The position numbers were made by a program, and so were the translations under genes. Below the pieces are notes generated by a model. That model had not been told where the DNA came from and searched no databases. It saw only the letters and a program-made list of their open reading frames with translations. DNA of 59,959 nucleotides, filler included, from Nitrospirae bacterium CG2_30_53_67 (lineage in GTDB: Bacteria > CG2-30-53-67), in the NCBI GenBank assembly GCA_001873285.1. It is 3 parts of 3 records of this genome, joined end to end, with 100 filler letters (N's around TTAATTAATTAA, not from the genome) between each part and the next. Parts side by side here need not be neighbours in the genome. Positions count along the whole stretch, not along the records: positions 14,670 to 44,844 come from MNYV01000096.1; 2 more parts are not named here. One strand, written 5' to 3'. Positions 7,107 through 39,703 of the stretch are shown here, one piece after another (the stretch's first letter is position 1; every line of letters begins with the position of its first letter).

Positions 7107-7520
7107 TCAATTATTTTTCCCCGCTTTCGCAGGTTCTTTGGTCTCGTCTTTGACCGCCGGCTCGGACTCTGAAGAGATGCCGAGTCCATGGATCCTCCCC
7201 TCGTACTCTTCCCTGATGCGGTCCATATCCTGCTGAAGTTTATTCACATCTTCCTGAATCCTGTCAGCCTCTTTGAAGAGATCCTGGATGGTTCCGTCAT
7301 GAAAGACATTGGACTGGCTGTCCTGTGTTCGGAGTGTGTACAACCGATTCCCCATCTTCGCCATGACGCCGTCCATCTCTTTTTTCAAAGTGTTGCTCCT
7401 AAGGTTCATCCGGGTCAGTTTTGTTTTTTCCTCTGCCTTGAGGGTGATCTTGGAGGTTGCGGTCTTGATCCCCTGATAGGCATCATCCATGCCTTTTTTG
7501 ATTTTTTCCCACATATTCAT
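7107..7520 (-). CDS. hypothetical coiled-coil protein
   Basis: ORF with GGAGG RBS before ATG 7520; helical and Lys/Glu-rich. Confidence 0.65.
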   Translation of the reverse strand: MNMWEKIKKGMDDAYQGIKTATSKITLKAEEKTKLTRMNLRSNTLKKEMDGVMAKMGNRLYTLRTQDSQSNVFHDGTIQDLFKEADRIQEDVNKLQQDMDRIREEYEGRIHGLGISSESEPAVKDETKEPAKAGKNN

Positions 7521-7532
7521 CCCTCCTTTTTT

Positions 7533-7657
7533 ATACAGAGCGACATAACTTTGCATACCTTTGTTGCTTCCTCGTCTCGTCGCTGCGGCGTACTATCAGT
7601 ACGCCTCACTCCTCGACTTCGTCGCGCCTCGGTCTGCTTTGTTCTATCCCTCTGTAT
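7533..7657. repeat. palindromic MITE/REP-like element (GCGGCGTAC...GTACGCC core)
   Basis: Ends ATACAGAG / CTCTGTAT are inverted. The core hairpin resembles that of MITE family 1. Confidence 0.55.
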
Positions 7658-7809
7658 GCGAGTTTATTTATTACTCTATGTGTATAGCAATATCATAACC
7701 AAATATATCTCATATTTTCTGTTTTGCAAGTGCGTAAAACACCATCCTTCTTCATGAGCCTGTTTGAGCCCGTTCGGGACAGGGAGAGGCCGGAGGCAGC
7801 AACCCCTGG

Positions 7810-8391
7810 CTACTCTGAGCAGGGGATACAGAGTTTTCTCCCTTTGTCTTCCTTAATCCGGGAGGACATGACTTTTTCGCCGCATTTCTCGCAGCGCAGG
7901 CTCGGATAGATCCGGGCCATGGGCGGAGGCTCGTACTCGATTTCATGGATCCTGAGGATTTGCTCATCGTCCGCGGTTAAAATCTCCTCAACCTTCCGCG
8001 CCTTGAGTTCCCGGACCCGTTTGACCAGGTCAGGGTTTCGCTCACCGGAGAGATACCTTTCCCAGGCCTTTTTGTCCTCGGGGGATTCCCTGGGTGTGTA
8101 ATCCACGGAAATCCTGAGCCCTTTGCCGGCGGATCGGCCGAAAAAAGTATAGACTTGTTTGCCGAAATCCTTGAAGATGAGATTCCCTTTGCCGAAGGTG
8201 CACCCGGTCATGACTTGGATGGCATCCACTGAACAGGAGTCGTTCTCCACAACGGCCACGATCTCTTCATCCGCGGAGCGCTCGCCCAGGGCCTTCAATG
8301 CCGCTTTGGCCGCGCGGTAGCCGTAGGCCAGTCCCGGACAGATGTGCCCATGGAACTCGATCACCTTCCTGAGTGTGTCGTCGTATTCCAT
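7810..8391 (-). CDS. FmdE-family protein with C-terminal zinc finger
   Basis: FHGHICPGLAYG, ENDSCSVDAIQ, GCTFGKGNL, CxxC...CxxC. Confidence 0.9.
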   Translation of the reverse strand: MEYDDTLRKVIEFHGHICPGLAYGYRAAKAALKALGERSADEEIVAVVENDSCSVDAIQVMTGCTFGKGNLIFKDFGKQVYTFFGRSAGKGLRISVDYTPRESPEDKKAWERYLSGERNPDLVKRVRELKARKVEEILTADDEQILRIHEIEYEPPPMARIYPSLRCEKCGEKVMSSRIKEDKGRKLCIPCSE

Positions 8392-8566
8392 ATCCGTTCC
8401 CCTTCAAGGATCAACGTGTTGTCAAAACCTGACCACAGAGAACACAGGGTATTTCTCTCAGCACTCTGTGGTTATCTCTCCCTCCCTCTGGTGTGCCTCG
8501 AGAGGAATACGGTTACTATAACATAGTTATGGGAATCCGGCTATTCTGAATCGGATATTCTCAAGA

Positions 8567-8595
8567 TTGACAGCGGACGGCCGTTTATGTATGGT
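8567..8595 (+). promoter_or_regulatory. sigma70-type promoter of the ABC-2 operon
   Basis: TTGACA-17 nt-TATGGT. Confidence 0.5.
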
Positions 8596-8669
8596 GTAAC
8601 GGGTGAATGGCATGGCGGCTTCCCGGCCGAGGACAGAAACCGGGGGGACTTTTCCAGCAGGGTATTTTA

Positions 8670-9524
8670 ATGGACGAATGGATGATCCGGACGTTTGATC
8701 TTACAAAAAAGTTCGGGAGCTTGACTGCCGTAAACCGGTTGAATCTCTCGATTCATCAGGGGGAGATCTTCGGCCTTCTCGGGCCCAACGGCGCCGGCAA
8801 GACCACCACGATCCGAATGCTGACCACCCTCGCAAAGATTTCAGACGGCCGCGCCTTTGTAAGCGGTATCAACGTGGAGGATCGCCCGCTGGAGGTGAAG
8901 AAGATCATCGGCGTGGTGCCTCAGGGGTTGAACCTCGAGATCGAACTCACGGCAGAGGAGAATCTGGACTTTCACGGCCGGCTTCATAAGATGCCGAAGA
9001 AACAAAGGCGGGATCGGGCCTCGGAGATTCTCGGCTTTGTCGGACTCGATGATAAAAGCAAGGTCCAGGTCGATCATTTTTCAGGGGGGATGAAACGGCG
9101 GCTCCTGATCGCCAGGGCATTGATGCACAGGCCCAGGATCCTGTTCATGGACGAACCTACCGTCGGCCTGGATCCGCAGATCCGGAGAAAGATCTGGGGC
9201 CTGATCCAGGATCTCAAGGACCAGGGGATCACCATCCTGATCACCACGCACTACATCGAAGAGGCCGAGGCCTTATGCCATCGGGTCGGGATCCTGCGGA
9301 AAGGAGAGCTGATAGCCTTGGATTCCCCGAACGGACTCAAGCGGGATCTGGGCGAGTATGCCGTGGAATGCCAGAACCGCAACGGATGCGATGTCCGGTT
9401 TTTCAAGGAGCGCAGGGAGGCCGTGGCCTATGCGGGGAGCTTGAATCAGGACCTGATGATCCGCCAGACCAACCTGGAGGATGTGTTTTTGAATCTGACC
9501 GGAGAGAAGATCCATCATGAATAG
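8670..9524 (+). CDS. ABC-2 type exporter ATP-binding protein (DrrA/NodI-like)
   Basis: GPNGAGKTT, FSGGMKRR, MDEPTVGLDP, TTHY. Confidence 0.92.
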   Translation: MDEWMIRTFDLTKKFGSLTAVNRLNLSIHQGEIFGLLGPNGAGKTTTIRMLTTLAKISDGRAFVSGINVEDRPLEVKKIIGVVPQGLNLEIELTAEENLDFHGRLHKMPKKQRRDRASEILGFVGLDDKSKVQVDHFSGGMKRRLLIARALMHRPRILFMDEPTVGLDPQIRRKIWGLIQDLKDQGITILITTHYIEEAEALCHRVGILRKGELIALDSPNGLKRDLGEYAVECQNRNGCDVRFFKERREAVAYAGSLNQDLMIRQTNLEDVFLNLTGEKIHHE

Positions 9525-26072: not shown

Positions 26073-27881
26073 ATGACGGCAAGAGAACGAATACGCAACT
26101 TCTCCATTATTGCGCACATTGATCACGGAAAATCCACTCTCGCCGATCGGATTCTGGATTTGACCGGGGCGCTGACCGACCGGGAGAAGATGAGCCAATT
26201 TCTGGACCAGATGGACATCGAACGGGAGCGGGGGATTACCATCAAGGCCCAGACCGTCCGTCTCCGGTATCTGGCCCAGGACCGGAAGGAGTATTGCCTG
26301 AATCTGATTGATACCCCCGGGCATGTGGACTTTAATTATGAGGTGTCGCGCAGTTTGGCCGCCTGTGAGGGGGCCCTTCTGGTGGTGGACGCGGCCCAGG
26401 GGGTTGAGGCCCAGACCGTGGGAAATGTCTATCTCGCCATCGACCACAACCTGGAGATCATCCCGGTGATCAACAAGATTGATCTTCCCAATGCGGATGT
26501 GGAGAAGACCCGAAAGGAGATCGAGGACGTCATCGGACTGGACACGTCTCACGCCCTTTCCGTGAGCGCCAAACTGGGAACCGGGGTCAGGGATGTCCTG
26601 GAATCGATCGTCCGTCTGGTCCCCCCTCCGAAGGGCGATCCTGATGCGCCTCTGAAAGCGCTTCTCTTTGATTCCTGGTTCGACCCCTATATGGGCACGG
26701 TCTCTCTGATCCGGGTCATTGACGGGGTGATCCGAAAAGGCATGCGCATACGGCTGATGTTTACGGACAAGGACTACGAGGTCCAGCAGGTCGGTGTCTT
26801 TACCCCGCACCCCACCGTGATGGAAGGTCTTTCCGTGGGTGAGGTCGGTTTCTTCATGGCCGGGATCAAAAATGTTCAGGATACCCGTATCGGAGATACG
26901 GTCACCGAATCGGGAAATCCGACCCGGAACGCTCTACCCGGGTTCAAACATGTCAAGCCCATGGTCTTTGCGGGGCTCTACCCGGTGGACAGCAATCACT
27001 ACAAGGAATTGCAGGATGCGATGGAGAAGCTCAGTCTCAACGATTCCTCCTTTTCCTACGACAAGGAGACCTCCAACGCCCTCGGTTTCGGATTCCGGTG
27101 TGGTTTTCTCGGTCTGCTCCACATGGAAATCATTCAGGAGAGGCTCGAGCGGGAATTTTCCATCCCCCTGATCAGCACCTCTCCTACGGTGGTCTATAAG
27201 GTTTTGATCCAGTCCGGGGAAGAGCTGATGATCGAGAACCCCTCCAAGCTCCCGCCGGTTCAGAAAATCGAGAAGATTTTTGAGCCGCTGATCCTCGCCA
27301 CCATCATGCTCCCGGCGGAGTACATGGGTTCGGTGATCACCCTGGCGCAGGAGAGGAGGGGCGTACAGAAAAAAATAGACTACCATGGAACAAGCAGGGT
27401 GACGATTCAATATGAGCTTCCGCTGAATGAAATCGTGGTGGACTTCTATGACCGTCTCAAGTCCACAAGCCGGGGGTATGCGTCCATGGATTATGAATTC
27501 GCCGGGTATCGGGAGGCGGCTATGGTCCGGCTGGATATCCTGATCAACGGAGAAATAGTGGATGCCCTTTCCCTGATCGTCCACAAGGACCGCGCCTATC
27601 ACAAGGGAAGAAAGCTTGCCGAAAAGCTCAAGAAGATCATTCACCGCCAGATGTTCGAGGTGGTGATCCAGGCCTCCGTGGGAAACAAGGTCATCGCTCG
27701 GGAGAGTATCTCCGCATTGAGAAAGAACGTGACGGCCAAGTGTTACGGCGGTGACATCACCCGAAAAAGAAAACTGCTGGAAAAACAGAAAGAGGGGAAG
27801 AAACGGATGAAGAGCGTCGGGAGCGTGGAGATTCCGCAGGAAGCCTTCATGTCGGTTCTGAGCATGGACGATGAAGAGTGA
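26073..27881 (+). CDS. lepA: elongation factor 4
   Basis: [48 protein letters not shown]. Confidence 0.98.
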
Positions 27882-27951: not shown

Positions 27952-28103
27952 GGGTCCAAGGGGTCAAGGATTCCAGGGTTCAAGTGAAATGCCAAGACAC
28001 GGCTGAAATGACTGGTAAAGAAGCCCTTGAACCCTTGAACCCTTGAACCCTTGAACCCTTGAACCCTTTGAACCCTTTGAACCCTTTGAACCCTTTGAAC
28101 CCT
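27952..28103. repeat. family-2-related element with tandem array (CCCTTGAA)5(CCCTTTGAA)4
   Basis: Units counted at 28024-28063 and 28064-28099, inverted to the GGGTCAAG arm at ~27952-27988. Confidence 0.9.
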
Positions 28104-28127
28104 ATTTATAGAAGGATGGATAACGTT

Positions 28128-28769
28128 ATGCCGAATAAGAAAGAGCAGGAAACGGAGAAAATACAGGCAGGCAAGAAGTCGTTCTGGCGAGAGAACTTCG
28201 AAGCCATTCTCATCGCTTTGGTCCTGGCCCTTTTCATCAGGACCTTCGTGGTGCAGGCATTCAAAATTCCTTCCGGGTCCATGCTGGAAACCCTGCAGAT
28301 CGGTGATCATATCCTGGTCAATAAATTTATATACGGAATCCATGTTCCGTTTACGAACGTATCCTTTCTCCATTTTTATAAACCTGAGAGGGGGGATATC
28401 ATCGTCTTCAAGTACCCGAAGGATGAGAAAAGAGATTTCATCAAACGGGTGGTCGGCGTTTCGGGAGATACCGTGGAGGTCCGGGACAAGATCGTTTATG
28501 TCAACGGCGAGAGGCTTCGCGATGAGGACTTTGTGGCCCACAGGGATTCCGTCATGATACCGGGTCCTCGGGACAACTTCGGTCCGGTGACCGTACCGCA
28601 GGGCTGCTATTTTATGATGGGGGACAACCGGGACGGGAGTTACGACAGCCGGTTCTGGGGATACGTTAAAGAGGAAGAAATCCTCGGCAAGGCGCTGATC
28701 ATCTACTGGTCATGGGACCGGGAGAATCTCAGGCCGAGGCTGGGGCGGATCGGGAAAATGATTCGTTAA
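28128..28769 (+). CDS. lepB: signal peptidase I
   Basis: IPSGSM, GDHILVNKF, RGDIIVF, FIKRVVG, GDNRDGSYDSR; follows lepA. Confidence 0.96.
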   Translation: MPNKKEQETEKIQAGKKSFWRENFEAILIALVLALFIRTFVVQAFKIPSGSMLETLQIGDHILVNKFIYGIHVPFTNVSFLHFYKPERGDIIVFKYPKDEKRDFIKRVVGVSGDTVEVRDKIVYVNGERLRDEDFVAHRDSVMIPGPRDNFGPVTVPQGCYFMMGDNRDGSYDSRFWGYVKEEEILGKALIIYWSWDRENLRPRLGRIGKMIR

Positions 28770-28785
28770 ATCATGCAACAAATCA

Positions 28786-28815
28786 TTGACGAATTTTAAT
28801 TTAACATGGTAAAAT
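28786..28815 (+). promoter_or_regulatory. sigma70-type promoter upstream of the rSAM cluster
   Basis: TTGACG-18 nt-TAAAAT with extended -10 TG. Confidence 0.5.
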
Positions 28816-28874
28816 TCAGTCCGCCCCCGAGCCTTCGAGCCTTCGTGAACCGAGTAAGAGGTGTACCTGATACC

Positions 28875-30284
28875 ATGAAAAAAGAATGCCTGTTAATCTC
28901 CTCTCCCGCTGAATTAAATATCTTTCCTCGCGGCATTATGGAGATTGCCACATTTCTGAATCAACAGGGCTGCCCCACATCTGTTTTGCCATTGGGTTAC
29001 TACTTTCAAAAAGACTATGCTGCGGATTCATCAGGGTATATTATCGGGGATATCGACCGGAATGAACTTTATGCCATCCTGCAGGATGTGATCAGAGAGA
29101 TCGCCCCACAGGTGATCGGCGTCAGCAACTCCTTTACCAAAGACTTCCCATACTGCATTGAGATTATTAAAATCTGTAAGGAAATCAATCCCAAAATCGT
29201 CACGGTGATGGGAGGCCAGCATGTGACATTTTGTGACCAGGAAGCTCTTCAGACGCCGGAACTGGATGTGGTGGTAAGGGGGGAAGGTGAATGGATCATG
29301 CTGAATCTGCTTCGTGCCGTAACGGGGAAAAAAGAGTTGAGTGGTGTCCGGGGGATCACGATCAGGCAGAATGGGGGGATTGGGCGAACCCCACCGGAGC
29401 CCCTCGGCAAACTGGAAGAGATCTCCGCTGTAGATTTTGCTTTATTACCTTCGGATTTTGTGCGGAAAGCATGTATCATCGGCATTTCATACAGGGGCTG
29501 TGCTCACCACTGCAAATACTGTGTGGAGGAGAAATTCTGGGCCAGGCCGCGTGCGTACACGCTTGAAAAACTCATTACAGAGATGAAAGTATTGCAAAGA
29601 GATTATCAGACTCAGATCATCGGCCTTGGGGAAAGCATGCTGGATATGCGATCAAAAATATTTTATGACCTCTGCCGGGGAATTCGAGACAATGAAATCA
29701 CGCTTCCGCCGGACTTCTTTATGACAACCCGCATAGACACGGTGACGGATCAAGGAGTAGATTGCCTGGCTAAGACCGGCATAAAGTCCGTTAGTGTGGG
29801 GATCGAAAATTTCTCTCCAAAGGTCCTGAAGATGATGGCAAAGAACCAGAGTATGGACGTCATTCTTGAAGGCTGCGAAAAATTCATGAAAAAGGATATA
29901 TGGCTGCTGAGCTACTGGTTGATCGGACATCCCGGCGATAATGCAGATGAAGCTGACTACAACTACAGCAAGTTTAAGGAATTCTTTGAAAAGGGTCTCT
30001 TGAAAAGAGGGACGGCATTCATTTTTGTTCCCTATCCCGGTACCGACTACTTCAATCATCCGGAACAATACGGAATCAGGATATCCTCATACGACTGGAA
30101 ACAGTGGAACCGCTGGACAAAAGATCCGGTAAGTTGGCTGGATGATTTTCCAAAACCTGAAATCGTCGCGGCTTATGATCGAGCCCATGAATTGCTGCGC
30201 GGTTATAATGGTCTTAACAATTTTCTATATTACATGAGCGCTTTCGATCGTTCCGCTTATCTGTCTATGACGCGTTCATCTTAG
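28875..30284 (+). CDS. B12-binding domain radical SAM protein (class B methyltransferase-like)
   Basis: GGQHVT and VVRGEGE (cobalamin-binding domain), RGCAHHCKYC, GIEN, PYPGT. Confidence 0.88.
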   Translation: MKKECLLISSPAELNIFPRGIMEIATFLNQQGCPTSVLPLGYYFQKDYAADSSGYIIGDIDRNELYAILQDVIREIAPQVIGVSNSFTKDFPYCIEIIKICKEINPKIVTVMGGQHVTFCDQEALQTPELDVVVRGEGEWIMLNLLRAVTGKKELSGVRGITIRQNGGIGRTPPEPLGKLEEISAVDFALLPSDFVRKACIIGISYRGCAHHCKYCVEEKFWARPRAYTLEKLITEMKVLQRDYQTQIIGLGESMLDMRSKIFYDLCRGIRDNEITLPPDFFMTTRIDTVTDQGVDCLAKTGIKSVSVGIENFSPKVLKMMAKNQSMDVILEGCEKFMKKDIWLLSYWLIGHPGDNADEADYNYSKFKEFFEKGLLKRGTAFIFVPYPGTDYFNHPEQYGIRISSYDWKQWNRWTKDPVSWLDDFPKPEIVAAYDRAHELLRGYNGLNNFLYYMSAFDRSAYLSMTRSS

Positions 30285-30450
30285 TGGCCCTATTCGTAAA
30301 TACGGTCGCATTCGAGTGCCGTATGGCGGTCTCCTCGGCGTTGCGCTCCTTGCGGTGTACCACAGTGGGTACGCCTCAGTCGCGCGCCTTGATGAGACCG
30401 CCCTACGACCCTCTCGGTACGTTACCATATTTACGAACAGGACCACTTAG
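30280..30450 (-). mobile_element. MITE family 1, full copy (inverted relative to 10995)
   Basis: Same TIRs, CTTAG at both ends; the left CTTAG contains the TAG stop of the upstream gene. Confidence 0.85.
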
Positions 30451-30496
30451 TCATCCTCCCTCTGATAGATGGCATTGATACGCGGGAAAGGACGGG

Positions 30497-31063
30497 TTGA
30501 AGGTTTTAGCAGATCAGATATTCAATTTAAAAGAACGGATCCTCTTTGAAACGCTTCAAGAAGAAGGGATTGTTTTTCATTTGGGCAATCGCATGGTTCA
30601 TACACTGAACCGGACGGGCGCGGGAATCCTTCATCTCCTGGATGGACATAGAAATGTGAGAGAGGTGATCCAGGCCTTCTCCAGGATGTGTGAACAACCT
30701 GAAGAGGTTTTAAGAAAGGACGTGGAGCATTTTCTTTCAGACCTTTACGAAAGGGGTTGGTTGATGTTAAACGAGCGCCATAATTTATTGATCAATCAGG
30801 AGATTGTATTAAGAGAAGAAGAAGGAGGAGCCTTTTTGTTTGAACCGGACACGGGCCGGCTATGTCATCTCAACGCCTTGGGGACGAGCATTTGGAAATT
30901 ATGCAGAAAACCTATCACCTCCGCGCAGATCATTGATGAAATATGCAAGGAGTACCCTGCAACGCCGCAGGAACAGATCTCTAAGGATTGCTTGCTTTTT
31001 CTGGAAGAGTTGGATCAATTAGGATTTTTCGCAAACCGTGAAGATCATGAGAGGGATTCATGA
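30497..31063 (+). CDS. scmD: tandem PqqD/RRE peptide chaperone (ScmD-like)
   Basis: Two PqqD repeats: LNRTGAGILHLLDG...DVEHFLSDL and VLREE...LFEPDTG...LNALGTSIWKLC...DCLLFLEEL. Confidence 0.85.
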   Translation: MKVLADQIFNLKERILFETLQEEGIVFHLGNRMVHTLNRTGAGILHLLDGHRNVREVIQAFSRMCEQPEEVLRKDVEHFLSDLYERGWLMLNERHNLLINQEIVLREEEGGAFLFEPDTGRLCHLNALGTSIWKLCRKPITSAQIIDEICKEYPATPQEQISKDCLLFLEELDQLGFFANREDHERDS

Positions 31064-32205
31064 GCAACAACATGGACCAGCAGCCCAAACATCCTTTACG
31101 GTCTATTTATTTTTATCCAACCGAATCGTGCAATTTAAAATGCATCCATTGCTGGATACGTCCGGCCTATGCGCCGGATGAGAAATCCTATCAAAGGCAG
31201 AACCAGGAGAATGTCTCTGTTGAAGTCATGGATCGGGTGGTTCGGGACGCCCTTCCCTTGGGTTTGTCCCATGTAAAATTTACCGGAGGAGAGCCCTTTG
31301 TCCATCCGGGGCTTTTCGAATTTATCGACTGCTTCTCCGGCCATGGACTTTCCTTGAGCTTTGAAACCAACGGCACATTGCTCTCTGCCGGCATGGTTCA
31401 AAGACTTTGCAAGCACAACGTGACGCAGATTTCCGTCAGCCTTGATGGAAGTCATGCTGATATCCATGAGAGGATCCGGGGGGTGAGGGGAAGCTTCGAG
31501 AAAGCCGTAAACGGGATTCAACTTCTTATGGAACATCAGATCGATCCGCAAGTCATTTTCTGTCTCCAGAAAATCAACGCCCATGATCTTGAGAACACGA
31601 TCCGCCTGGCCTACAAGATGAAAGTGAAATTATTTGAAATCAATCCCATGATTTTTGTCGGGATCCGGGAATCGTCTGAGAATGGGTGCGAAGGTTTGTC
31701 CCTTAAAGAGCTGCTGGACCTTGAAAACAAAGTGGAAACCGAATACGCGGATCGCTATCCGAATATGCATATTGATCTCTACCTTCCCCCGGCACTGAAA
31801 GGAATGCGGGAACTGGCTCGACATCCGATATGTTCCTGCGCGATCTTTAATATCTGCGGGATTCTTTCCAACGGGGACGTTTCGATTTGCGGCATTGGAA
31901 GCAGAAACAGGGAACTGGTCATGGGGAATGTCAAAGAAAAAAGTGTCTCTAAGATATGGGAAGAGGGCATCCTTTTTAAGGAAATTCGGGAACAGGTCCC
32001 GCTGCATCTGAAAGGCGTATGCAGACGATGTCTTTTCAAGCATCATTGCCTCGGCTTCTGCCGCGCCGACGTGATCTCTCATGAGAAAACGGTCTTGAAT
32101 TCTTATCAGGTCTGTGAAGAGGCATGCCGGAAAGGCCTTTTCCCGGAGTCCAGACTGTTGGAAGAGAGTGAATTGTCCAGAGTCCATGGGGAATGGAATT
32201 CATGA
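31060..32205 (+). CDS. scmF: radical SAM/SPASM peptide maturase, ScmF-like
   Basis: PLRSIYFYPTESCNLKCIHCWI, FTGGEP, SPASM ICGIG...CRRC..KHHCLGFC, GLFPESR. Confidence 0.85.
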   Translation: MSNNMDQQPKHPLRSIYFYPTESCNLKCIHCWIRPAYAPDEKSYQRQNQENVSVEVMDRVVRDALPLGLSHVKFTGGEPFVHPGLFEFIDCFSGHGLSLSFETNGTLLSAGMVQRLCKHNVTQISVSLDGSHADIHERIRGVRGSFEKAVNGIQLLMEHQIDPQVIFCLQKINAHDLENTIRLAYKMKVKLFEINPMIFVGIRESSENGCEGLSLKELLDLENKVETEYADRYPNMHIDLYLPPALKGMRELARHPICSCAIFNICGILSNGDVSICGIGSRNRELVMGNVKEKSVSKIWEEGILFKEIREQVPLHLKGVCRRCLFKHHCLGFCRADVISHEKTVLNSYQVCEEACRKGLFPESRLLEESELSRVHGEWNS

Positions 32206-33278
32206 ATATTTTTTCCGCGCCGCAAAAGGTCACCCTGAATGTTACCAACCGATGCAACCTGAACTGCCTCTATTGCGGCGTCTCTTCCACAAAGAATGCG
32301 CCCGGCGACCTGAACCTTGAAGAATGGAAAGAGGTGGTGGATGAACTTGCGCGCATCAAAGTCTTCCGTTTGCTGATTTCCGGGGGCGAACCTTTTATAT
32401 ATCCTGATCTTCCCGATCTGCTGACATACATTCTTCAATATCCGTTCAGAATTTCAATCAACACCAATGGAACCCTTCTCAATGCAAAGATACTCTCCAT
32501 GCTTTCCGGCTCTCGCCGTCTGGAGAACGTTCAGGTTTCTTTAGACGGTCCGAATTCAGAGGTTCATGATTTTATCCGCGGTAAAGGATCGTTTGCAAAG
32601 AGTATGGAAGGCATTGATCTCCTTCGCCGATACCATATTCCCTTTAGTTTTTTTGTTGTTGTTTCCAAGAACAATCAAGACGTTCTCCATGAGATTGTTG
32701 AATTTTCGAATCAGGTCGGCGTGTCAGAGATTACATTCTCGTCTTTATTACCCCAGGGGAGCGCGCTATTCCATTGGAAAGATCTTTGCCTTAGCTTTCA
32801 AGAGCAGAAGAGAGTCGAAGGTGAATTGAGGCGGCTAAGGAGCCGATACCCGAAACGGGTCGGAGGATCATTGGTCAATGCGATTGCGATGATGGATCGC
32901 ATTTCTCAATTGGATGTCACGGAGCGGCAGCCCTCAGATTCGAATAAGATCACGAGTTGTGGTGGAAGTGTGGAGGAATGTTCCATCCGTCCGGATGGAT
33001 GGGTGATCCCCTGCGATCGTCTATGGGACTATAAAGTGGGGAATGTGAGAACGGAATCTTTTAGGGATATCTGGCAGCACTCCCAAGGGATGCGTCAGTT
33101 CCGGACGCGTTATTCTCGCAGCATGGATTCCTTCAAAGAGTGCCATGATTGCTTATATGCTTATTTATGCAGAGGGGGATGCCCGGCAGTTCCTTATAAC
33201 ATGGGAAGAGGGATTGACGGTTGGGACCCGCTTTCTTGTTATAAAGTTTTCATCGGTCAAAAGAACAGCTATGTCTAA
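32202..33278 (+). CDS. scmE: radical SAM/SPASM peptide maturase, ScmE-like
   Basis: TNRCNLNCLYC, SGGEP, SPASM SCGG...DGWVIPC...CHDC...CRGGCPA...SC. Alternative start at 32193. Confidence 0.85.
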   Translation: MNIFSAPQKVTLNVTNRCNLNCLYCGVSSTKNAPGDLNLEEWKEVVDELARIKVFRLLISGGEPFIYPDLPDLLTYILQYPFRISINTNGTLLNAKILSMLSGSRRLENVQVSLDGPNSEVHDFIRGKGSFAKSMEGIDLLRRYHIPFSFFVVVSKNNQDVLHEIVEFSNQVGVSEITFSSLLPQGSALFHWKDLCLSFQEQKRVEGELRRLRSRYPKRVGGSLVNAIAMMDRISQLDVTERQPSDSNKITSCGGSVEECSIRPDGWVIPCDRLWDYKVGNVRTESFRDIWQHSQGMRQFRTRYSRSMDSFKECHDCLYAYLCRGGCPAVPYNMGRGIDGWDPLSCYKVFIGQKNSYV

Positions 33279-34317
33279 TTTACCGAACACCATGGAAAAA
33301 CAGATGGATGTGGAGATAGGAGGCGAAGTCTTTCATCTCTATTTTGAAAAATGGAATCATCGGTGGAACCATGCATTGGGAAAAAACTACGGCGATTATA
33401 TAACCCATTCGAAAAAAACGGGCTGTCATGTACAGGTGATCCCATATTCTGACGGCCGGCATTTTATTTGGAAGCCATCCGAACTGGAGAGATTCAGAGA
33501 ATTTTTTCTAAACATTCATCAACGGTATCCAGGGAATGGACCCGTGGAGGAAGCCGCGGAAAGTTCGCTTGATATTTTGCAAACCCTTGATCCGGAAAAA
33601 AATTCGATGAAGGATATACGTTCCTGTATGGATGAACCCCAAACCCTGATCTATTTGAGGATCGGGTCTGATCTCTATTTTATTGATATCCAATCAAGAA
33701 ACGCCTATTTTTTTATTCGAGAAAGAACCCGGCAAATCCCATGGTTAAACGTTCTCATCAAGAATCGGTCCTCGGAAGATATGGGGATGATGAACGGAAT
33801 GATGTTCCTCCTTTCACATCGATTAATCCATCATGGAGGATTATTGCTTCACGGCGCAGCGGTCCGGAAAGAAGATCAGGCCGTTCTGTTTCTTGGACTT
33901 TCAGGCGCCGGGAAATCTACTGTGAGCCGCCTATGCAGGCCTGATGTTTGTTTCTCGGATGATGGGACGATTATCAAGAAAGAAGAGGGTCGAGTTTATG
34001 CCTATCATTCACCCTTCAGGCAATATAAGATAAAAGAGAGATCTGTGGAATCCGTGAAAGGAGAGATCAAGAAGCTCTTTCTGATAGAGCAAAGTACGGA
34101 AAATCTGATCAGACCCATAAAAAAAAATGAACTGATGAGTACGATCCTTCTGCATCTGATTCATTTTTACAAATACTTGGATCAAGAGACTGCACGGATG
34201 GGTTTTTATCTGGTCAAGGATATCTTAGAGACCCTTCCGGCTTACCGATTGCAATTTGCCAAGAAAAGTGATATATGGAATCACCTATTTCAAATGGAGG
34301 AAAATTGTAATGACTGA
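33271..34317 (+). CDS. scmC: HPr kinase-like P-loop protein (ScmC-like)
   Basis: GGLLLHGAAV, GLSGAGKST, FSDD, SPF. Confidence 0.75.
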   Translation: MSNLPNTMEKQMDVEIGGEVFHLYFEKWNHRWNHALGKNYGDYITHSKKTGCHVQVIPYSDGRHFIWKPSELERFREFFLNIHQRYPGNGPVEEAAESSLDILQTLDPEKNSMKDIRSCMDEPQTLIYLRIGSDLYFIDIQSRNAYFFIRERTRQIPWLNVLIKNRSSEDMGMMNGMMFLLSHRLIHHGGLLLHGAAVRKEDQAVLFLGLSGAGKSTVSRLCRPDVCFSDDGTIIKKEEGRVYAYHSPFRQYKIKERSVESVKGEIKKLFLIEQSTENLIRPIKKNELMSTILLHLIHFYKYLDQETARMGFYLVKDILETLPAYRLQFAKKSDIWNHLFQMEENCND

Positions 34318-34519
34318 TCAGCCAAACAACAAAAAAGATTATGAGCCTCCGAAGGTTAAAGAAATAGGAGGGATCTATGAACAAGCTATGGGGATATCCA
34401 AGTGCCAAACCGGCGGCACTTTTGCCGCAAGCTGTCGTGCCGGGAATCGCGCGTCAAGTTGTCTTGCTGGGTCTACTCCCGGGCCAGGGACATCGTGTTC
34501 CATGGGAAACCCGGTATGA
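34310..34519 (+). CDS. candidate RiPP precursor peptide, 69 aa, with four CxxG motifs
   Basis: GGAGG RBS, overlap with the upstream stop, YEPPKV leader motif, Cys/Gly/Ser/Thr-rich core. Confidence 0.8.
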   Translation: MTDQPNNKKDYEPPKVKEIGGIYEQAMGISKCQTGGTFAASCRAGNRASSCLAGSTPGPGTSCSMGNPV

Positions 34520-34561
34520 TAAATTTTTTTTATGGCCCTTCAAGATCGAGAGGATAAAACT

Positions 34562-35005
34562 TCACTCCTGATTCGGCTCGACCCTCTTCTGAAATGGTAA
34601 GATCCGCTTTAATACATTCTTGGCTTTAAATTCCAGTGCGCCAGGCGTCAGGCCCATGCGGCTAAGGGCGGCATAAAGCCTTTTGAACCTTGATCGGGGG
34701 CCGGAGGCCACCGAAATCAGCCGTCTCCTTCTCACGATGAGTTCCACCTTGCCGGCAGCCTTTGAAAGATCAACCCGTTCAGGGTCCGGTGCAAGGAGCG
34801 CGTCTCCCTTAGTCATTCCGCATTTCAGGCCGATCCGTTTGATCAATCGATGCACCATTAAGCGGCCATAAGTGTTCCGGACCGCAATCATATCTCCAAC
34901 TTCAAGGCAAGCGGGCGGGACCTTCCTGACAATCAATCGGTCCCCGGGTTTGAGACAGGGATACATGGAGTATCCGGTGAAGGGCAAAGTGAAAAATTTC
35001 ATCAT
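34562..35005 (-). CDS. S24/S26 family peptidase
   Basis: GYSMYPCLKPGD, VHRLI, TKGD. Confidence 0.8.
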   Translation of the reverse strand: MMKFFTLPFTGYSMYPCLKPGDRLIVRKVPPACLEVGDMIAVRNTYGRLMVHRLIKRIGLKCGMTKGDALLAPDPERVDLSKAAGKVELIVRRRRLISVASGPRSRFKRLYAALSRMGLTPGALEFKAKNVLKRILPFQKRVEPNQE

Positions 35006-35188
35006 ATCAAAGTGGATCCATCTATATGTCAAACTCACAGAATAGAAGAGGTTTTATCGGATTCTATAATAATTATAACCCGTTCTGAAAATATACGTCA
35101 ATGTTTTGTTGCTGTTGCCATGTGTTATAAGCGCACTTTCTCATCATAAACTTTTTCACGCCCGACATCCCCTTTATTAAATAATGAT

Positions 35189-35325
35189 TATGTAATCTGT
35201 TACCCAACTATGTAACGCGTTACATAGTTTTTCTTTTGTTCATTTTTAAGCCATCCATGTAAACCAAGAAAAAGCAATGACTTAGACAGAAATGCTTCGC
35301 ATGTCTTTTTGGCATGTTTATTGCT
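35189..35325 (+). promoter_or_regulatory. sigma54 promoter with upstream palindromic activator sites
   Basis: TGGCATGTTTATTGCT (GG 35311, GC 35323). Perfect palindrome at 35206-35229 and a second GTAA-N4-TTAC at 35192-35203. Confidence 0.75.
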
Positions 35326-35376
35326 CTATTGTCCCATAGATCTATGGAAAGTTTTATCCAATGGAGGAGAGGATAT

Positions 35377-35715
35377 ATGTTTAAAGATAAAAAAATTTCA
35401 AGCCGTGAGACAAATTTTCATCGTGCAGGATACCGCATCGCCTTTATTATTTTTATCATTTCTCTTTTAAGTGTTTTTACCATCTCCCTGGGGTATGCGG
35501 AAAAAGTCACTGTTGTTGAAGGAATCATAGAAAATGTGACGGAGCATTCCATAAAAGTTCGAAACAATAATTATGAAGTGATCGGGGTTCCTCTCCTCAA
35601 AAGCTCAGGGGAGGCACTATCGTATGATGCGCTCCGGCGGGGGAAAAAAGTGGAGATCTTTTTTCATGACAAAAAAATCACATCCATAATTATTCATGAA
35701 GATATGGTGGAATAA
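35377..35715 (+). CDS. hypothetical exported protein, first gene of the pilY1 operon
   Basis: Strong RBS, hydrophobic signal/TM segment, small beta-rich domain. Confidence 0.65.
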   Translation: MFKDKKISSRETNFHRAGYRIAFIIFIISLLSVFTISLGYAEKVTVVEGIIENVTEHSIKVRNNNYEVIGVPLLKSSGEALSYDALRRGKKVEIFFHDKKITSIIIHEDMVE

Positions 35716-35725
35716 GGAGTTGAAT

Positions 35726-38700
35726 ATGAAACGATGCATTTTATTTATTTTTTTGTCCTTATCTTTAATATTTTGTTCTTTTGAAAACTCGGATGCCGTC
35801 ATGGAGGACTACTGTCTTGTTCCTCCTTACGTAGTTCAGAATATTTCTCCCAACGTCATGATTGTTCTGGATAATTCCGGAAGTATGTTTAATTTTGCCT
35901 ATTCCGACGGCTTTACTACAACCACAACGGCAGATGACAATCCGTGTTACAGTTCAGGCAGCCCCTGTACAGAATTTTCAACACCCGGCGCCTATCCTGC
36001 CTACCAATATTACGGCTATTTCAACCCTGACTACTGGTACGATTACCAGAGTAACAGGTTTATCCCAACTGCTCCAAAAACAGGAAGCGGGCTTACAGGC
36101 GAGAGGGCAAAGCTCTCCTCAGAATGGGATGGCAATTTTCTTAACTGGCTGACCATGAGAAGGATAGATATTATAAGAAAAGTCATGACTGGGGGGAAGA
36201 CAACCACGGGCGAAGGCTCAGGCTTCGACAGACTCAATGGGGAAGTAGCGGATTGCGACAGCAGAGGAAAATACAAAAAGATAACAAATGCAGATCTCTA
36301 CACGCCTTACAGTGGAACTCGGAAACTCTATGTTTATTCTGCAAGTGCCGGCTGCGGTGGCGGTGGATCTGGTACATCTTCATTCTCCATCAGGAACGAC
36401 ACTGGAGGGAGTGATGGCACTGGTAATGAAGGAACCTGGAATGTAACAGTCAGGGTGCCATCTCCCGTGGAAGGTGTTGTCCAGAGTGTCGTCGGTACCA
36501 GGGCACGACTGGGGCTTTCATTTTATAAGACGAATGCCCCCAGGCCGCAGGGCGGTTTTGTTCAGGTCAACGTCTCTGGTGGAAGTCTTTCAAGTACGGT
36601 AAACCAGATCAATCTCACCAGGCCGAGCACCAACACGCCCTTAGCTGAAACGTTATGGACGGTAGCCGGTTATTTTGCCCAGACGGCAAGCATGGAAAGC
36701 GGCCCCGGGCCTCGCTACAGCAGCGCGGATTATACGATCAACAACACAGCGGATCCTTACAATTATGGCACAGGCGGTCAGCCCAGCTACCCAAGCTGTG
36801 CCAAGAGTTTTGTGCTGTATATCACCGACGGAGAGCCGTGTGCGGACGGTTATCTGCCGGCAACTTTAAAAAGTTATGCCAACGGCAGATCCAACTATGA
36901 TTGTTATGACTTAAATCCCGGCAATCCCGGCAGGGGTGGTTATTGTCCGGCTGTGGGAAGCTTTGCGGCATCCACCTTTCCGACATGCAATGGAGGCTGG
37001 CAGGGCGGATATGTCTCCGGCATGGAAGATGTGGCATTGTATGTTCATACCAACGATCTCAGGACAGCGGCAACCAAGGATATAACCGGCAAACAGGTCT
37101 TAACGCTTTATTCAGTATTTGCCTTCGGCAAGGGGTCCACACTGCTTCGATATGCAGCGATTAATGGCGGGTTTGAAGATTTTAATGGGAATGACGTCCC
37201 GGATCTTCAGTCCGAATGGGACAACAACGGCGACGGCGAACCCGACAACTTCTATGAGGCCGTAGACGGCCAGGAACTCGAAAAATCCATTCGGGATGCT
37301 TTTTCAAGCATACTCAAGAGGGCCGCTTCGGGCACGGCAGCCTCGGTTCTTGCCTCCGGTGAGGGTAGCGGGGCCAATCTTATCCAGGCGGTATTTTATC
37401 CGAGAAAGAGGATCGGAAACGATATTATCGGGTGGGCCGGTGTGGTTCAGGACCTTTGGTATTATGTGGACCCGCTGTACACAAACAGCAGTGTCAGAGA
37501 AGATACGGTTAAAGACAATATCCTCAGCCTTCCTGACGATAATATCGTGAGTATTTACTTCGATACCACTGATCAAATGGTCAAGGCCAAAAAATACGAC
37601 AGCGATCAGGATGGAAACATTGGGGCGCTCAATTCGACAATTCTTTTTGAGGATCTGAAGAATTTATGGGAAGCCGGCAAGATCTTGTGGCAGCGGGATC
37701 TTACCGCGGAGCCAAGGACGATCTACACCACAACCGACGGAAGCAGTTTGTTCGACTTCTCAGTAGCCAATGCCGGGTCACTGAGCGCCCTTCTCGATGT
37801 TCAGGATGAAAACAGTGACTTAAATAGAACCGATGACGCTGAGTATCTCATCCGGTATATCCACGGCGAGGACTTCATTGGTATGGACCGCAACGTTGAC
37901 GGGACGGATGATTTCCGGTCAAGGACGGTTTCGATGGACGGCGTTTCGAATACGTGGAAGCTCGGGGATATCATTAACTCGACTCCTAAGATTGTCTCAT
38001 GGTATCGGTTGAACCGGTATGATCGAGATTATGGGGATACCACATACGGGCCTTGTGATGATCCACTTGCATATTGTCAGGATCCGTCTCAGAGCGATAC
38101 GGCAGACCCGAACCATTTTATCACAACCCAGGCTTATAAGGACCGGGACACGGTCTATGTGGGCGGGAACGACGGGATGCTTCACGCCTTTAGACTCGGG
38201 ACCTTGAGGCTCAAATGGGCCGGAAAGGGGAACTATGAAGCGGCGTCGCTGGACAGTTCGGGGGAGATGACAGGGTTGGGCGAGGAACGATGGGCCTTTA
38301 TCCCCAAGAATGCCCTGCCTTATCTCAGATACCAAAAAGAGCAGGACTACTGTCATCTGTATACGGTAGATCTCACCCCCACGGTTTTTGACGCCAGTAT
38401 CAATGGAAGTGCGAGTGCTGTAAGGGACGTAAACAGTTGGAAAACCATCCTGATCGGCGGCATGAGGCTGGGCGGCGCCAGCAGTAACGCCGGTTCAGCC
38501 TGCACGGATTGCGTGAAGACACCCATCAACGGCGTGGGCTATTCATCCTACTACGCCCTGGATGTGTCGGATGAGAACAATCCTCAGCTTCTCTGGGAAT
38601 TTACCAATCCGGACCTTGGTTATGCGACCACAGGACCTGCCGTTATCCGGATAGGGGCCAAAGACACAAACGGCAGTTGGTTTGTGGTACTGGGCTCCGG

Positions 38701-39703
38701 TCCCACCGGACCCATCAGCTCTACAGGTTACCAATTTATGGGGCGGTCCGACCAGAACCTCAAGCTCTTTATCCTTGATTTGAAGACAGGCGCCCTGTTG
38801 ACAACGATCGATACCGGACTGACGAATGCCTTTGCAGGCACCCTGATCAATTCCAACAATGATGTGGACGACAACTACCAGGACGAAGTTCTCTATATCG
38901 GCTACGTGACGAGAAACAGGGTAGGTAGTAATTATTTCTGGAACAACGGAGGGATAGGCAGGCTGGTTACCAAGGAAGATGCCAATCCGGGCAACTGGGT
39001 CTGGAGCAAGGTCATGGACGGCATCGGGCCGGTCACAGCGGGGATCACCCGTCTGCGGGATAAAAAACAGGATAGACTCTGGCTCTTCTCAGGTACGGGA
39101 CGATATTATTTCTCTCTCGATACCGAAAACGACGATCCGGACGGCCAGAGATATATTTTCGGTTTCAAAGACCCCTGCTATGTGCCGAACTCGGGGTATG
39201 ATAAGTTAGGGCTATGTACAACTACGGTGGATTTTAACACTTTTGATCTTCGAACCGTGACAGGCTTCAGCGCTGGTGGATGGGCGGAACCCAGCACCGG
39301 CTGGAAATGGGCTTTGGATGGCCAAGGGTCCGGTACCTATCCCGAAGGCGATCCTGCCGTGGACGTCACGAAAAACTATTTTTCCGAAAGGATGGTTTCC
39401 GATCCCTTCACCTCCAAGACCGGGTGCACATTCTTTACGACCTTCAGACCCTATAATGAACAATGTTCCATTGGAGGGGAATCCTTTATTTGGGTGCTTG
39501 ATTATAAAACGGGAGGCCGCCCTAACTGTGATGGTAAGTTGACATTCCAGGTCTCCACAGGGGCCATACAGGAAGTCAATATCGATGATATCCCAGGGCC
39601 CAAGTCTGTCGGAACGGACGGTCAAACCCCCGATGGGCAGGGAGCGGCGCTTCAGTCCGGAGCGGACCCCACCAAGTTGCTTATTCACAAAAGGAAGAAA
39701 TAA
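35726..39703 (+). CDS. pilY1: type IV pilus adhesin PilY1/PilC
   Basis: Signal peptide, vWA-like DNSGS and ITDGEP, KLGDIINSTP, GGNDGMLHAF, ERWAFIP, DxDxDG loops. Confidence 0.92.
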   Translation: MKRCILFIFLSLSLIFCSFENSDAVMEDYCLVPPYVVQNISPNVMIVLDNSGSMFNFAYSDGFTTTTTADDNPCYSSGSPCTEFSTPGAYPAYQYYGYFNPDYWYDYQSNRFIPTAPKTGSGLTGERAKLSSEWDGNFLNWLTMRRIDIIRKVMTGGKTTTGEGSGFDRLNGEVADCDSRGKYKKITNADLYTPYSGTRKLYVYSASAGCGGGGSGTSSFSIRNDTGGSDGTGNEGTWNVTVRVPSPVEGVVQSVVGTRARLGLSFYKTNAPRPQGGFVQVNVSGGSLSSTVNQINLTRPSTNTPLAETLWTVAGYFAQTASMESGPGPRYSSADYTINNTADPYNYGTGGQPSYPSCAKSFVLYITDGEPCADGYLPATLKSYANGRSNYDCYDLNPGNPGRGGYCPAVGSFAASTFPTCNGGWQGGYVSGMEDVALYVHTNDLRTAATKDITGKQVLTLYSVFAFGKGSTLLRYAAINGGFEDFNGNDVPDLQSEWDNNGDGEPDNFYEAVDGQELEKSIRDAFSSILKRAASGTAASVLASGEGSGANLIQAVFYPRKRIGNDIIGWAGVVQDLWYYVDPLYTNSSVREDTVKDNILSLPDDNIVSIYFDTTDQMVKAKKYDSDQDGNIGALNSTILFEDLKNLWEAGKILWQRDLTAEPRTIYTTTDGSSLFDFSVANAGSLSALLDVQDENSDLNRTDDAEYLIRYIHGEDFIGMDRNVDGTDDFRSRTVSMDGVSNTWKLGDIINSTPKIVSWYRLNRYDRDYGDTTYGPCDDPLAYCQDPSQSDTADPNHFITTQAYKDRDTVYVGGNDGMLHAFRLGTLRLKWAGKGNYEAASLDSSGEMTGLGEERWAFIPKNALPYLRYQKEQDYCHLYTVDLTPTVFDASINGSASAVRDVNSWKTILIGGMRLGGASSNAGSACTDCVKTPINGVGYSSYYALDVSDENNPQLLWEFTNPDLGYATTGPAVIRIGAKDTNGSWFVVLGSGPTGPISSTGYQFMGRSDQNLKLFILDLKTGALLTTIDTGLTNAFAGTLINSNNDVDDNYQDEVLYIGYVTRNRVGSNYFWNNGGIGRLVTKEDANPGNWVWSKVMDGIGPVTAGITRLRDKKQDRLWLFSGTGRYYFSLDTENDDPDGQRYIFGFKDPCYVPNSGYDKLGLCTTTVDFNTFDLRTVTGFSAGGWAEPSTGWKWALDGQGSGTYPEGDPAVDVTKNYFSERMVSDPFTSKTGCTFFTTFRPYNEQCSIGGESFIWVLDYKTGGRPNCDGKLTFQVSTGAIQEVNIDDIPGPKSVGTDGQTPDGQGAALQSGADPTKLLIHKRKK

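Follow-up and report, generated by a model that had tools for sequence, protein, structure and literature searches.

A probable but trimmed radical SAM peptide cluster, related to the SynChlorMet cassette, in Nitrospirae bacterium CG2_30_53_67

Which peptide-modifying system is encoded by the genes at positions 28875–35038 of the DNA analyzed here, and is the system complete? The DNA (59,959 nucleotides of Nitrospirae bacterium CG2_30_53_67, assembly GCA_001873285.1; hereafter, the window) had been described in an earlier note as carrying a complete-looking SynChlorMet-type cluster for a ribosomally made peptide with post-translational modifications (RiPP), with five overlap-coupled genes preceded by a cobalamin (B12) radical SAM (rSAM) gene and faced by an S24/S26 peptidase gene. 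This arrangement was confirmed, and the parts named in the note were all recovered: a precursor and RiPP recognition element (RRE) proteins, both rSAM/SPASM enzymes, a B12 methylase candidate, a protein with a kinase fold and a candidate peptidase. The claim of completeness did not hold, given that only the peptidase domain is left of a set seen in the closest relatives, which comprises a peptidase–NTP_transf_5 fusion, an ATP-binding cassette (ABC) exporter and a PRMT-like methyltransferase. The reading that we favor, with a probability of about 65%, is that of a genuine but trimmed cluster for an rSAM-modified peptide, which belongs to a distinct clade of the Scm superfamily. We report its gene content, the families and folds of its proteins, its synteny, the peptide family with its motifs and the accessory genes that are absent; a pathway is proposed, of which we infer each chemical step (thioether cross-linking, methylation, phosphorylation and leader cleavage) and the order of the steps.

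The features of the cluster are as follows.

28786–28815, + strand: sigma-70-like promoter match (TTGACG-18-TAAAAT with TG), ~60 nt 5′ of the likely B12-rSAM start
28875–30284, + strand: class-B, cobalamin-binding radical SAM enzyme (B12-rSAM), candidate peptide C-methyltransferase
30280–30450, no strand: 171-bp palindromic dispersed repeat, similar to a miniature inverted-repeat transposable element (MITE), between the B12-rSAM gene and scmD
30497–31063, + strand: fused tandem PqqD/RRE protein, ScmD-like, 188 aa, predicted leader-peptide chaperone
31060–32205, + strand: ScmF-like radical SAM/SPASM enzyme, 4-bp overlap with the tandem PqqD gene
32193–33278, + strand: ScmE-like radical SAM/SPASM enzyme, 13-bp overlap with scmF
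33271–34317, + strand: ScmC-like P-loop protein of two domains, which has a PEPCK/HprK kinase fold, 348 aa, 8-bp overlap with scmE
34310–34519, + strand: ScmA-like precursor, 69 aa, with four C-x-x-G units after a Lys-rich YEPPKVKEIGGIYEQAMGIS leader, 8-bp overlap with scmC
34562–35038, − strand: stand-alone putative S24/S26-clan peptidase domain with Ser/His-type motifs, 158 aa, candidate leader peptidase, convergent with the peptide gene
35072–35101, − strand: promoter-like site (TTGACG-18-TATAAT, 11 of 12 matches; consensus match only), 5′ of the peptidase gene

The B12-rSAM open reading frame (ORF) has 492 codons when counted from 28806; because homology to its relatives starts near residue 22–24, the start is probably at 28875. 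The peptide gene is preceded by a GGAGG Shine-Dalgarno sequence 8 nt 5′ of its ATG, and only 42 bp separate its stop from that of the peptidase ORF. The promoter-like sites are consensus matches only, with 17 sites in the region vs. 11.2 expected from shuffles. In the proposed pathway, a single transcript would start at the promoter-like site at 28786, cross the B12-rSAM gene and the MITE hairpin, and continue into scmD-F-E-C-A. The repeat gave 128 high-scoring blastn pairs on 65 of the 183 contigs of the genome (87–95% identity), with sharp ends at 30280 and 30450, and forms one long hairpin (−84.6 kcal/mol, z = −6.8; reverse self-match ~70%). It had no match in Rfam, and the Rfam search of positions 28000–36000 returned nothing at E ≤ 1. 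Only ~60–75 bp lie between the B12-rSAM and PqqD genes at two of the homologous loci (L022 and L024; such loci in other genomes and metagenomes are numbered with L). A 64-aa ORF at 30284–30478 was rejected as a gene, as it consists of the dispersed repeat. Several contigs end in this repeat, which is therefore probably part of the reason for the fragmentation of the assembly.

All five Scm models of NCBIfam were the top match for their respective window protein. The ScmF-like enzyme scored 297.6 bits with TIGR04251 (cut-off 400; next best WgkB, 148) and the ScmE-like enzyme 236.6 bits with TIGR04250 (cut-off 400; next best WgkB, 176, and MftC, 165). The ScmD-like protein scored 62.3 bits in two stretches with TIGR04248 (cut-off 100), the ScmC-like protein 40.3 bits with TIGR04249 (cut-off 125) and the precursor 16.6 bits (E = 0.0067) with TIGR04252, “SynChlorMet cassette protein ScmA” (cut-off 35). 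The existence of the last model also shows that the statement in the earlier note, of a cassette described without an identified precursor, is wrong or outdated. The architecture is that of the Scm cassette: a PqqD protein (Pfam PqqD, 103.6 bits in two stretches), two paralogous rSAM/SPASM enzymes and a ScmC-type protein, with a Cys-repeat peptide adjoining. For comparison, one cassette (L030) exceeded the cut-offs for ScmF (539.7 bits) and ScmE (577 bits), as did the ScmE proteins of L034 (554 bits) and L036 (635 bits). At L030 itself, ScmD reached 97.5 bits (just under the cut-off), the HprK-like protein 22 bits and the adjoining peptide 15.7 bits, and the HprK-like genes beside above-cut-off ScmE/F proteins scored only 22–39 bits with TIGR04249; the Scm equivalog models are thus narrow. 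A maximum-likelihood tree was built from 74 ScmE/F-like rows, leaving out 4 loci of the same organism, 2 near-duplicates and 5 rows with a stop in the tblastn match. The window ScmE fell in a clade of 12 rows (support 99/100) and the window ScmF in one of 11 rows (100/100), and the clade with the above-cut-off ScmE of L030, L034 and L036 (8 rows, 100/100) lay apart from both. A SynChlorMet-type identity, as claimed earlier, is borne out by the top matches; strict membership is not supported, given the separate ScmE and ScmF clades and the scores, all five of which lie below the curated cut-offs.

The precursor was compared in an alignment of 20 rows (A7: the window peptide, 18 relatives and P0001, a 69-aa variant found elsewhere that is 93% identical to the window peptide). 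After a Lys-rich N-terminus, the leader follows the consensus KxYEPPxVKEIGGxFEQAMGxS, and the core consists of C-x-x-G units. Y11, P14, E18–G21, E24–A26, G28, C32, G35, C42, G45, C51 and G54 are invariant. Each Cys is followed by x-x-Gly in all 20 peptides, successive Cys residues are 8–11 residues apart, and the tail after the last Cys has 6–7 residues in 19 of the 20; the window peptide keeps the family-typical end C-[ST]-x-G-x-x-x. Small residues occupy positions −1 and −3 of the leader–core junction (A-M-G or G-x-S; A-x-A in ScmA-type peptides). No residue tracking the presence of the B12-rSAM gene was evident by eye in the peptides. When 1.84 billion representative proteins were searched with the profile, 50 matches were obtained at E ≤ 0.001, 4 of them at E ≤ 1e-10; the count is a lower bound because small ORFs are under-called, and the distant matches form a continuum of peptides with a YEPP leader and C-x-x-G units. 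Beside other ScmE/F pairs, the peptides have the leader (F/L)PYEPPxIxDLGGGVAYAQ and, after it, many C-x-x-G-S-x-A-x(4) units; homologous ScmA-type peptides adjoin cassettes that are above the cut-off for ScmE (L030 and L034) and ScmF (L030). Alignment of the window family with the ScmA-type peptides by hhalign gave a probability of 98.9% (E = 1.9e-17, 83 columns), a score possibly inflated by the Cys/Gly composition; by this profile comparison, the window peptide is a distant homolog of the ScmA-type peptides. The YxxP-type leader motif is conserved and PqqD domains are present. In the proposed pathway, the fused PqqD/RRE protein would bind the consensus leader and present the core to the two rSAM/SPASM enzymes, which have no RRE of their own.

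In both rSAM translations, the CxxxCxxC motif and the SPASM motif CX2CX5CX3C are readable, and the Pfam scores were 91.2 and 107.4 bits for Radical_SAM and 36.8 and 45.8 bits for SPASM (cut-off 21.5). The earlier note had asked whether these enzymes might be better placed in PqqE or NirJ/Ahb; they are not, given that these families scored 88–102 and 98–148 bits, respectively, against 297.6 (ScmF) and 236.6 (ScmE). In the pathway that we propose, the two enzymes would act on the four C-x-x-G-x(5–8) units. The likeliest product would carry one thioether per Cys, linking its sulfur to a carbon in one of the ~6 residues that follow, a range suggested by the conserved 6–7-residue tail after the last Cys; the second enzyme might install a second type or a subset of the links. 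An alternative is that the enzymes perform no thioether chemistry and make C–C or C–O cross-links or epimerize residues, the Cys residues then being metal ligands or disulfide partners. It draws on the ranking of families after the Scm models: WgkB (a C–C cross-linker), MftC and AhbD came next, and not the sactipeptide or ranthipeptide synthases AlbA (65–99 bits) and PapB (92 bits, ScmE only) or the SCIFF maturase, so it is the Cys-repeat core that carries the thioether reading. Moreover, apart from the Gly at Cys+3, no acceptor residue is conserved. Two points count against the alternative, and we consider it unlikely. The only invariant core features are the Cys and the +3 Gly, in 4–6 regularly spaced repeats, which is the pattern of repeat-wise Cys modification, and the known Cys-rich substrates of rSAM/SPASM enzymes (SCIFF, PapA and the sactipeptides) are thioether-linked.

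Selenocysteine in the ScmF homologs was examined and rejected: the in-frame stops at L029, L038, L027 and L110 are ordinary C-terminal stops that tblastn had read through. A single mid-gene TAA was seen at L110, in the second, ScmE-like rSAM match.

The B12-rSAM protein has the class-B architecture, with a B12-binding domain (PF02310, 59.9 bits) and a Radical_SAM domain (PF04055, 60.6 bits). Its best NCBIfam matches were BchE (121.4 bits; cut-off 481), ApyD (86.8 bits) and a RiPP C-methyltransferase (82.7 bits), all far under their cut-offs. It is a candidate methylase or peptide C-methyltransferase, and in the pathway it would add a C-methyl group. Homologs that are 52–62% identical lie directly 5′ of the PqqD genes at L022, L024, L110, L119, L121 and L122; no such gene is seen in the available upstream DNA of L020, L023, L025, L026 and L109.

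ScmC has a precomputed match to the Pfam family “ScmC” (PF27840). In a Foldseek search with its AlphaFold2 model (pLDDT 88, pTM 0.88), ATP-dependent PEPCKs were the top matches (E = 8e-8, TMq 0.43–0.48), aligned across both domains, and HprK/P (1knx) was found at E = 2e-4. A sequence search against solved structures gave P-loop-level matches only. The Walker A motif GLSGAGKST (GxSGAGKS[T]) and the columns of H194 and D230-D231-G232, which we take to correspond to catalytic residues of HprK/P, are invariant in 30 homologs. The fold of ScmC is therefore that of HprK/PEPCK-type P-loop kinases, and its Walker A motif is intact; a conserved N-terminal region of ~170 aa is added to this fold, and distant ScmC-like genes align only to residues ~175–340. 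As proposed, ScmC would use ATP to phosphorylate a hydroxyl group of the peptide, a role for which the HPr-kinase homologs of lasso peptides are the precedent. According to PMC8498205, such homologs phosphorylate the C-terminal Ser of lasso precursors, and a nucleotidyltransferase, fused to the B2 leader protease in several clusters, adds a hexose to the precursor phosphate.

Distant systems with a single rSAM gene (within L027–L099; Acidobacteriota, Elusimicrobiota, Bdellovibrionota and Nitrospirota) were also seen to combine a HprK-like gene with short peptides that have 2–4 Cys residues and YxxP leaders. At 45 such loci, 53 candidate small ORFs were found with a regular expression of our own (false positives included), and 34 of them end in Ser, the residue targeted by the lasso kinases.

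A search of a 5.8-billion-protein set with the ScmC-like protein gave 72 matches at E ≤ 0.001, and 80 loci were kept from a scan of one genome per species. Full-length ScmC matches occurred at only 8 of the 80 (L020–L026 and L038), the rest covering the ~175–340 portion. None of 8 genomes of the same family, including the same-genus genome G001, had a full-length ScmC, and the one match among them was weak (G005, E = 7.6e-4). The cassette was present at 7 of the 8 full-length loci. Comparison of the neighborhoods, which the earlier note had called for, showed that the order PqqD-PqqD-F-E-C-peptide is kept at L020, L023, L024, L026, L109, L121 and L122; L025 has the same order and ends inside ScmC before any peptide, L038 starts inside ScmE, and at L022 and L106 ScmF has moved 3′ of the peptide. 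The PqqD halves are separate genes at L020 and L022–L026 and are fused only in the window. Peptide homologs directly after ScmC were found at 6 genome loci and 17 metagenome loci. The metagenome scan, anchored on the peptide motif, yielded 23 loci, 4 of which are from the same organism; ScmC lay directly 5′ of the peptide at 17 of the 19 others, whereas in the last 2 no DNA is available 5′ of the peptide. On the 4 contigs of the same organism (L102–L105), the arrangement is the same as in the window, with 99.7–99.9% DNA identity, and hence it is not an assembly artefact.

Variants of the cassette were observed at three loci. L110 and L119 are hybrids, with a window-type B12-rSAM, two PqqD, ScmF, ScmC and the peptide, and have no window-type ScmE; in each, a ScmE gene lies 5′ on the opposite strand (L110, 2482–3540, −; L119, 2528–3577, −). 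The L119 copy belongs to the above-cut-off ScmE clade, and the L110 copy contains the mid-gene TAA. At L038, a second PqqD-PqqD-ScmF set (7236–8927), 37% identical to the window ScmF, adjoins the window-type cluster, so that this genome holds two related cassettes in tandem.

The peptidase matched TIGR02228 with 36.8 bits (E = 3e-9; cut-off 51.85), and two other hidden Markov models gave 18.9 bits of the required 22.9 and 18.5 of 23.3. The top Foldseek matches of its AlphaFold2 model (pLDDT 84) were the C-terminal domains of LexA, UmuD and cI, human SEC11 and SipA, with E-values of 5e-3 to 0.1; the sequence search against solved structures returned nothing meaningful. All 18 sequences compared share G22, S24, M25, G32, D49, H63, R64, G78, D79 and D85, with the motifs GxSMxP, HR and GD…D, presumably the boxes of the ER/archaeal-type (Sec11/SipW) Ser/His signal peptidases. 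In clan SF, the nucleophilic Ser lies in the GxSMxP box, and the general base is Lys or, in the ER/archaeal type, His; small residues at −1 and −3 fit signal-peptidase specificity. The domain would accordingly cut the leader at the small-residue site A-M-G or G-x-S.

In the relatives, this domain is part of a larger protein of 515–624 aa, in which an N-terminal S24-like domain is fused to a C-terminal NTP_transf_5 domain (PF14907, 144 bits). The fusion gene lies on the strand opposite the peptide at L020, L024, L026, L038, L110, L113, L119, L121 and L122. Most of these loci also have an ABC exporter of 560–570 aa and/or a PRMT-like methyltransferase: all three are present at L020, L024, L121 and L122, the methyltransferase is missing at L026 and L038, and the exporter at L110 and L119. 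Across all relatives, the exporter is found in the clusters of L020, L024, L026, L038, L107, L111, L114, L115, L121 and L122. Alignment of the window ORF is confined to the N-terminal ~150 aa of the fusions, and its final residues fall opposite the linker between the two domains in the fusions at L038 and L024. Probably, judging from this alignment, the window peptidase is a remnant of a peptidase–NTP_transf_5 fusion gene, and the NTP_transf_5 domain, the exporter and the methyltransferase were probably lost here via one deletion; a single deletion that began in the fusion gene, at its linker, and reached as far as the end of the methyltransferase gene would yield the present state. Stand-alone S24-like genes beside HprK-like genes exist in more distant systems (L027, L045, L047, L073 and L096), so a history other than deletion may also be considered.

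These losses raise the alternative that the locus is a decaying remnant which, after the deletion and the MITE insertion, yields no mature exported product although its genes are still open. Besides the gene set of the close relatives and the stop of the peptidase ORF in the linker region, the whole-genome searches speak for it: with the L020 and L024 proteins as tblastn queries, the 95%-complete genome yielded neither a methyltransferase nor any other match to the fusion, and no dedicated exporter was found, the best ABC match being 30% identical and on another contig. The PF14907 search of the genome gave only two weak partial matches elsewhere (31 and 24 bits). The MITE hairpin between the first and second genes was counted as a further sign of decay, and the window peptide is among the shortest of its family, with only 4 Cys units vs. 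5–6 in 17 of the 18 relatives of A7 (L112 also has 4). Against decay, none of the seven ORFs is disrupted, and their start/stop overlaps have been kept; the peptide retains its strong Shine-Dalgarno sequence and its C-terminal motif, and the peptidase domain all its invariant residues and a promoter-like site of its own. The stand-alone S24-like genes of the distant systems and the existence of the near-identical variant P0001 elsewhere point the same way. A mere remnant thus appears improbable to us, and a genuine but trimmed cluster remains the preferred explanation.

The missing genes, the inserted hairpin and the short peptide weigh against the favored reading nonetheless, as do the Scm scores below cut-off, the ranking of the rSAM families, and the peptidase scores below cut-off with their weak structural E-values. 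Further points belong with these. C-terminal Ser occurs in 0 of the 20 window-type peptides, the window peptide ending in Val, and for this reason the phosphate acceptor of ScmC must differ from the lasso type. At L021, a full-length ScmC-like gene (7980–9059, 49% identical) has no rSAM, PqqD or peptide gene within 8 kb on either side; its neighbors encode a RimK-like ATP-grasp protein and diguanylate cyclases of the response-regulator type. Finally, no RNA run was present among the sequencing runs listed as containing the stretch.

The absence of an exporter from the cluster of the present genome, the PqqD-type chaperones and the third-best match of ScmE, the mycofactocin maturase (165 bits vs. 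cut-off 265), could also be taken to mean that the product is an intracellular peptide-derived cofactor, similar to PQQ or mycofactocin, rather than a secreted natural product. This is very improbable in our estimation. The clusters of the relatives include a dedicated ABC exporter at the loci given above, the core varies in length (4–6 units) and sequence, unlike cofactor precursors, and no partner oxidoreductase genes are conserved beside the cluster; moreover, the patchy distribution and the low GC content resemble those of an accessory trait. The earlier impression of an AT-rich block was correct: the cluster has a GC content of 46.9%, compared with 53.1% for the genome, and only 3.2% of 728 genome segments of 6.2 kb each are as low.

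How, then, does the trimmed cluster compare with known systems? It has the same five components as the SynChlorMet cassette, and the precursors of both combine a (P)YEPP leader with a core of C-x-x-G repeats. It differs in having two PqqD domains rather than one, a leader end KEIGGxFEQAMGxS rather than DLGGGVAYAQ, irregular repeat units rather than C-x-x-G-S-x-A, and an added B12-rSAM, to which the relatives add a PRMT-like methyltransferase. Two other database systems gave weak secondary matches, HPr-rel-A (TIGR04352/TIGR04353; HprK_rel_A 29.0 bits, PqqD_rel_X 35.2 bits) and GeoRSP (TIGR04302/TIGR04303; PqqD 59.0 bits, rSAM 88.8–113 bits); all are weaker than the Scm matches and nearly all far under cut-off, PqqD_rel_X being at its cut-off of 35.

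The ranthipeptides and sactipeptides (SCIFF/CteB, freyrasin PapA/PapB and subtilosin AlbA) likewise combine a Cys-rich, repeat-like core with a rSAM/SPASM maturase that has two auxiliary-cluster motifs, and RRE-dependent leader recognition would be a further common feature. The window differs in that its RREs are discrete proteins and its maturases are two; the SCIFF maturase model matched only the ScmE of L028 (75 bits) and was not among the listed matches of the window proteins. To our knowledge, these systems include neither a kinase-fold protein nor a signal-peptidase-like protease.

A HprK/PEPCK-fold P-loop protein beside a RiPP precursor is likewise found in lasso-peptide tailoring (paeninodin PadeK and pseudomycoidin PsmN; PMC8498205), and the nucleotidyltransferase–B2 fusion described there resembles the NTP_transf_5 domain that the relatives have fused to a candidate leader peptidase. 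The window has neither a lasso cyclase nor a B2 cysteine protease, its putative protease being of the S24/S26 clan; window-type peptides never end in Ser, and the nucleotidyltransferase is absent from the present genome. By analogy, the likeness suggests that a tailoring module of kinase and nucleotidyltransferase–protease moves between RiPP classes.

The literature search, which excluded subscription papers and supplements, turned up no paper, experimental or descriptive, that deals with SynChlorMet or its TIGR accessions, and none that pairs HprK with PqqD or unites HPr kinase, radical SAM, RiPP and SPASM. The kind of system is thus already defined in TIGRFAMs/NCBIfam and Pfam, precursor included, and, as far as searched, by database models only. 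The window represents a distinct clade, to which the B12-rSAM, a second RRE and the N-terminal domain of ScmC are particular, and it is trimmed relative to the full cluster of that clade. A broader proposal is that the window clade and the wider HprK-linked family form a RiPP class of their own, in which C-x-x-G units would each be cross-linked by two rSAM/SPASM enzymes, a kinase–nucleotidyltransferase module otherwise known only in lasso peptides would decorate the peptide, and the leader would be cut by a Sec11/SipW-like Ser/His peptidase fused to the nucleotidyltransferase. We put this forward tentatively, as possible but doubtful; we know of no RiPP with a leader peptidase of this type. 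If it is true, the window would represent a minimal form occurring in nature, from which exporter, nucleotidyltransferase and methyltransferase were shed.

The value of the locus lies in what it and ~25 relatives supply: a precise precursor family, a leader motif and a Cys-x-x-Gly repeat rule with a 6–7-residue tail, together with a parts list for the clade (two RREs, two rSAM enzymes, a kinase-fold protein, an optional B12-rSAM, a peptidase–nucleotidyltransferase fusion, an exporter and a methyltransferase). An orphan rSAM family thereby becomes a directly testable system. Given the trimming of the window copy, experiments are better started from a relative that has the full set (of the L024 or L121 type); the locus is a good entry to an uncharacterized RiPP family, but it is neither a full cluster nor the first discovery of the precursor.

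The cluster lies well within a single contig of 30,175 bases (C114, positions 14670–44844 of the window), the flanking runs of N starting at ~14570 and stopping at ~44944; the genome has 2.37 Mb on 183 contigs. Groundwater or aquifer DNA runs containing the stretch number 24, all possibly from the source campaign. On the 3′ side of the cluster, a 1335-aa ORF with a PilY1 beta-propeller domain (35696–39703; 37.2 bits) was observed, preceded by an AT-rich spacer (37% GC at 35001–36000) and a 133-aa ORF without a family match; no sign of a connection of either ORF to the cluster was seen. Two genes lie on the 5′ side.

26073–27881: lepA-like gene, 5′ of the cluster
28059–28769: lepB (signal peptidase I, 179.9 bits), 5′ of the cluster

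In the same-genus genome G001 (contig C40, locus L129), lepB is followed by five genes whose orthologs here, 83–93% identical, are on another contig (C64), so the region 3′ of lepB has undergone rearrangement or insertion in the present lineage. The use of G001 to define the borders of an island was dropped, since the genes 3′ of its lepB have their orthologs on C64. Within 28059–28110, the listed lepB ORF opens with (NPL)x5 and (RVQ)n is read on the other strand, which points to a short 9-bp tandem repeat in the lepA–lepB spacer; the true lepB start is probably further 3′ than listed.

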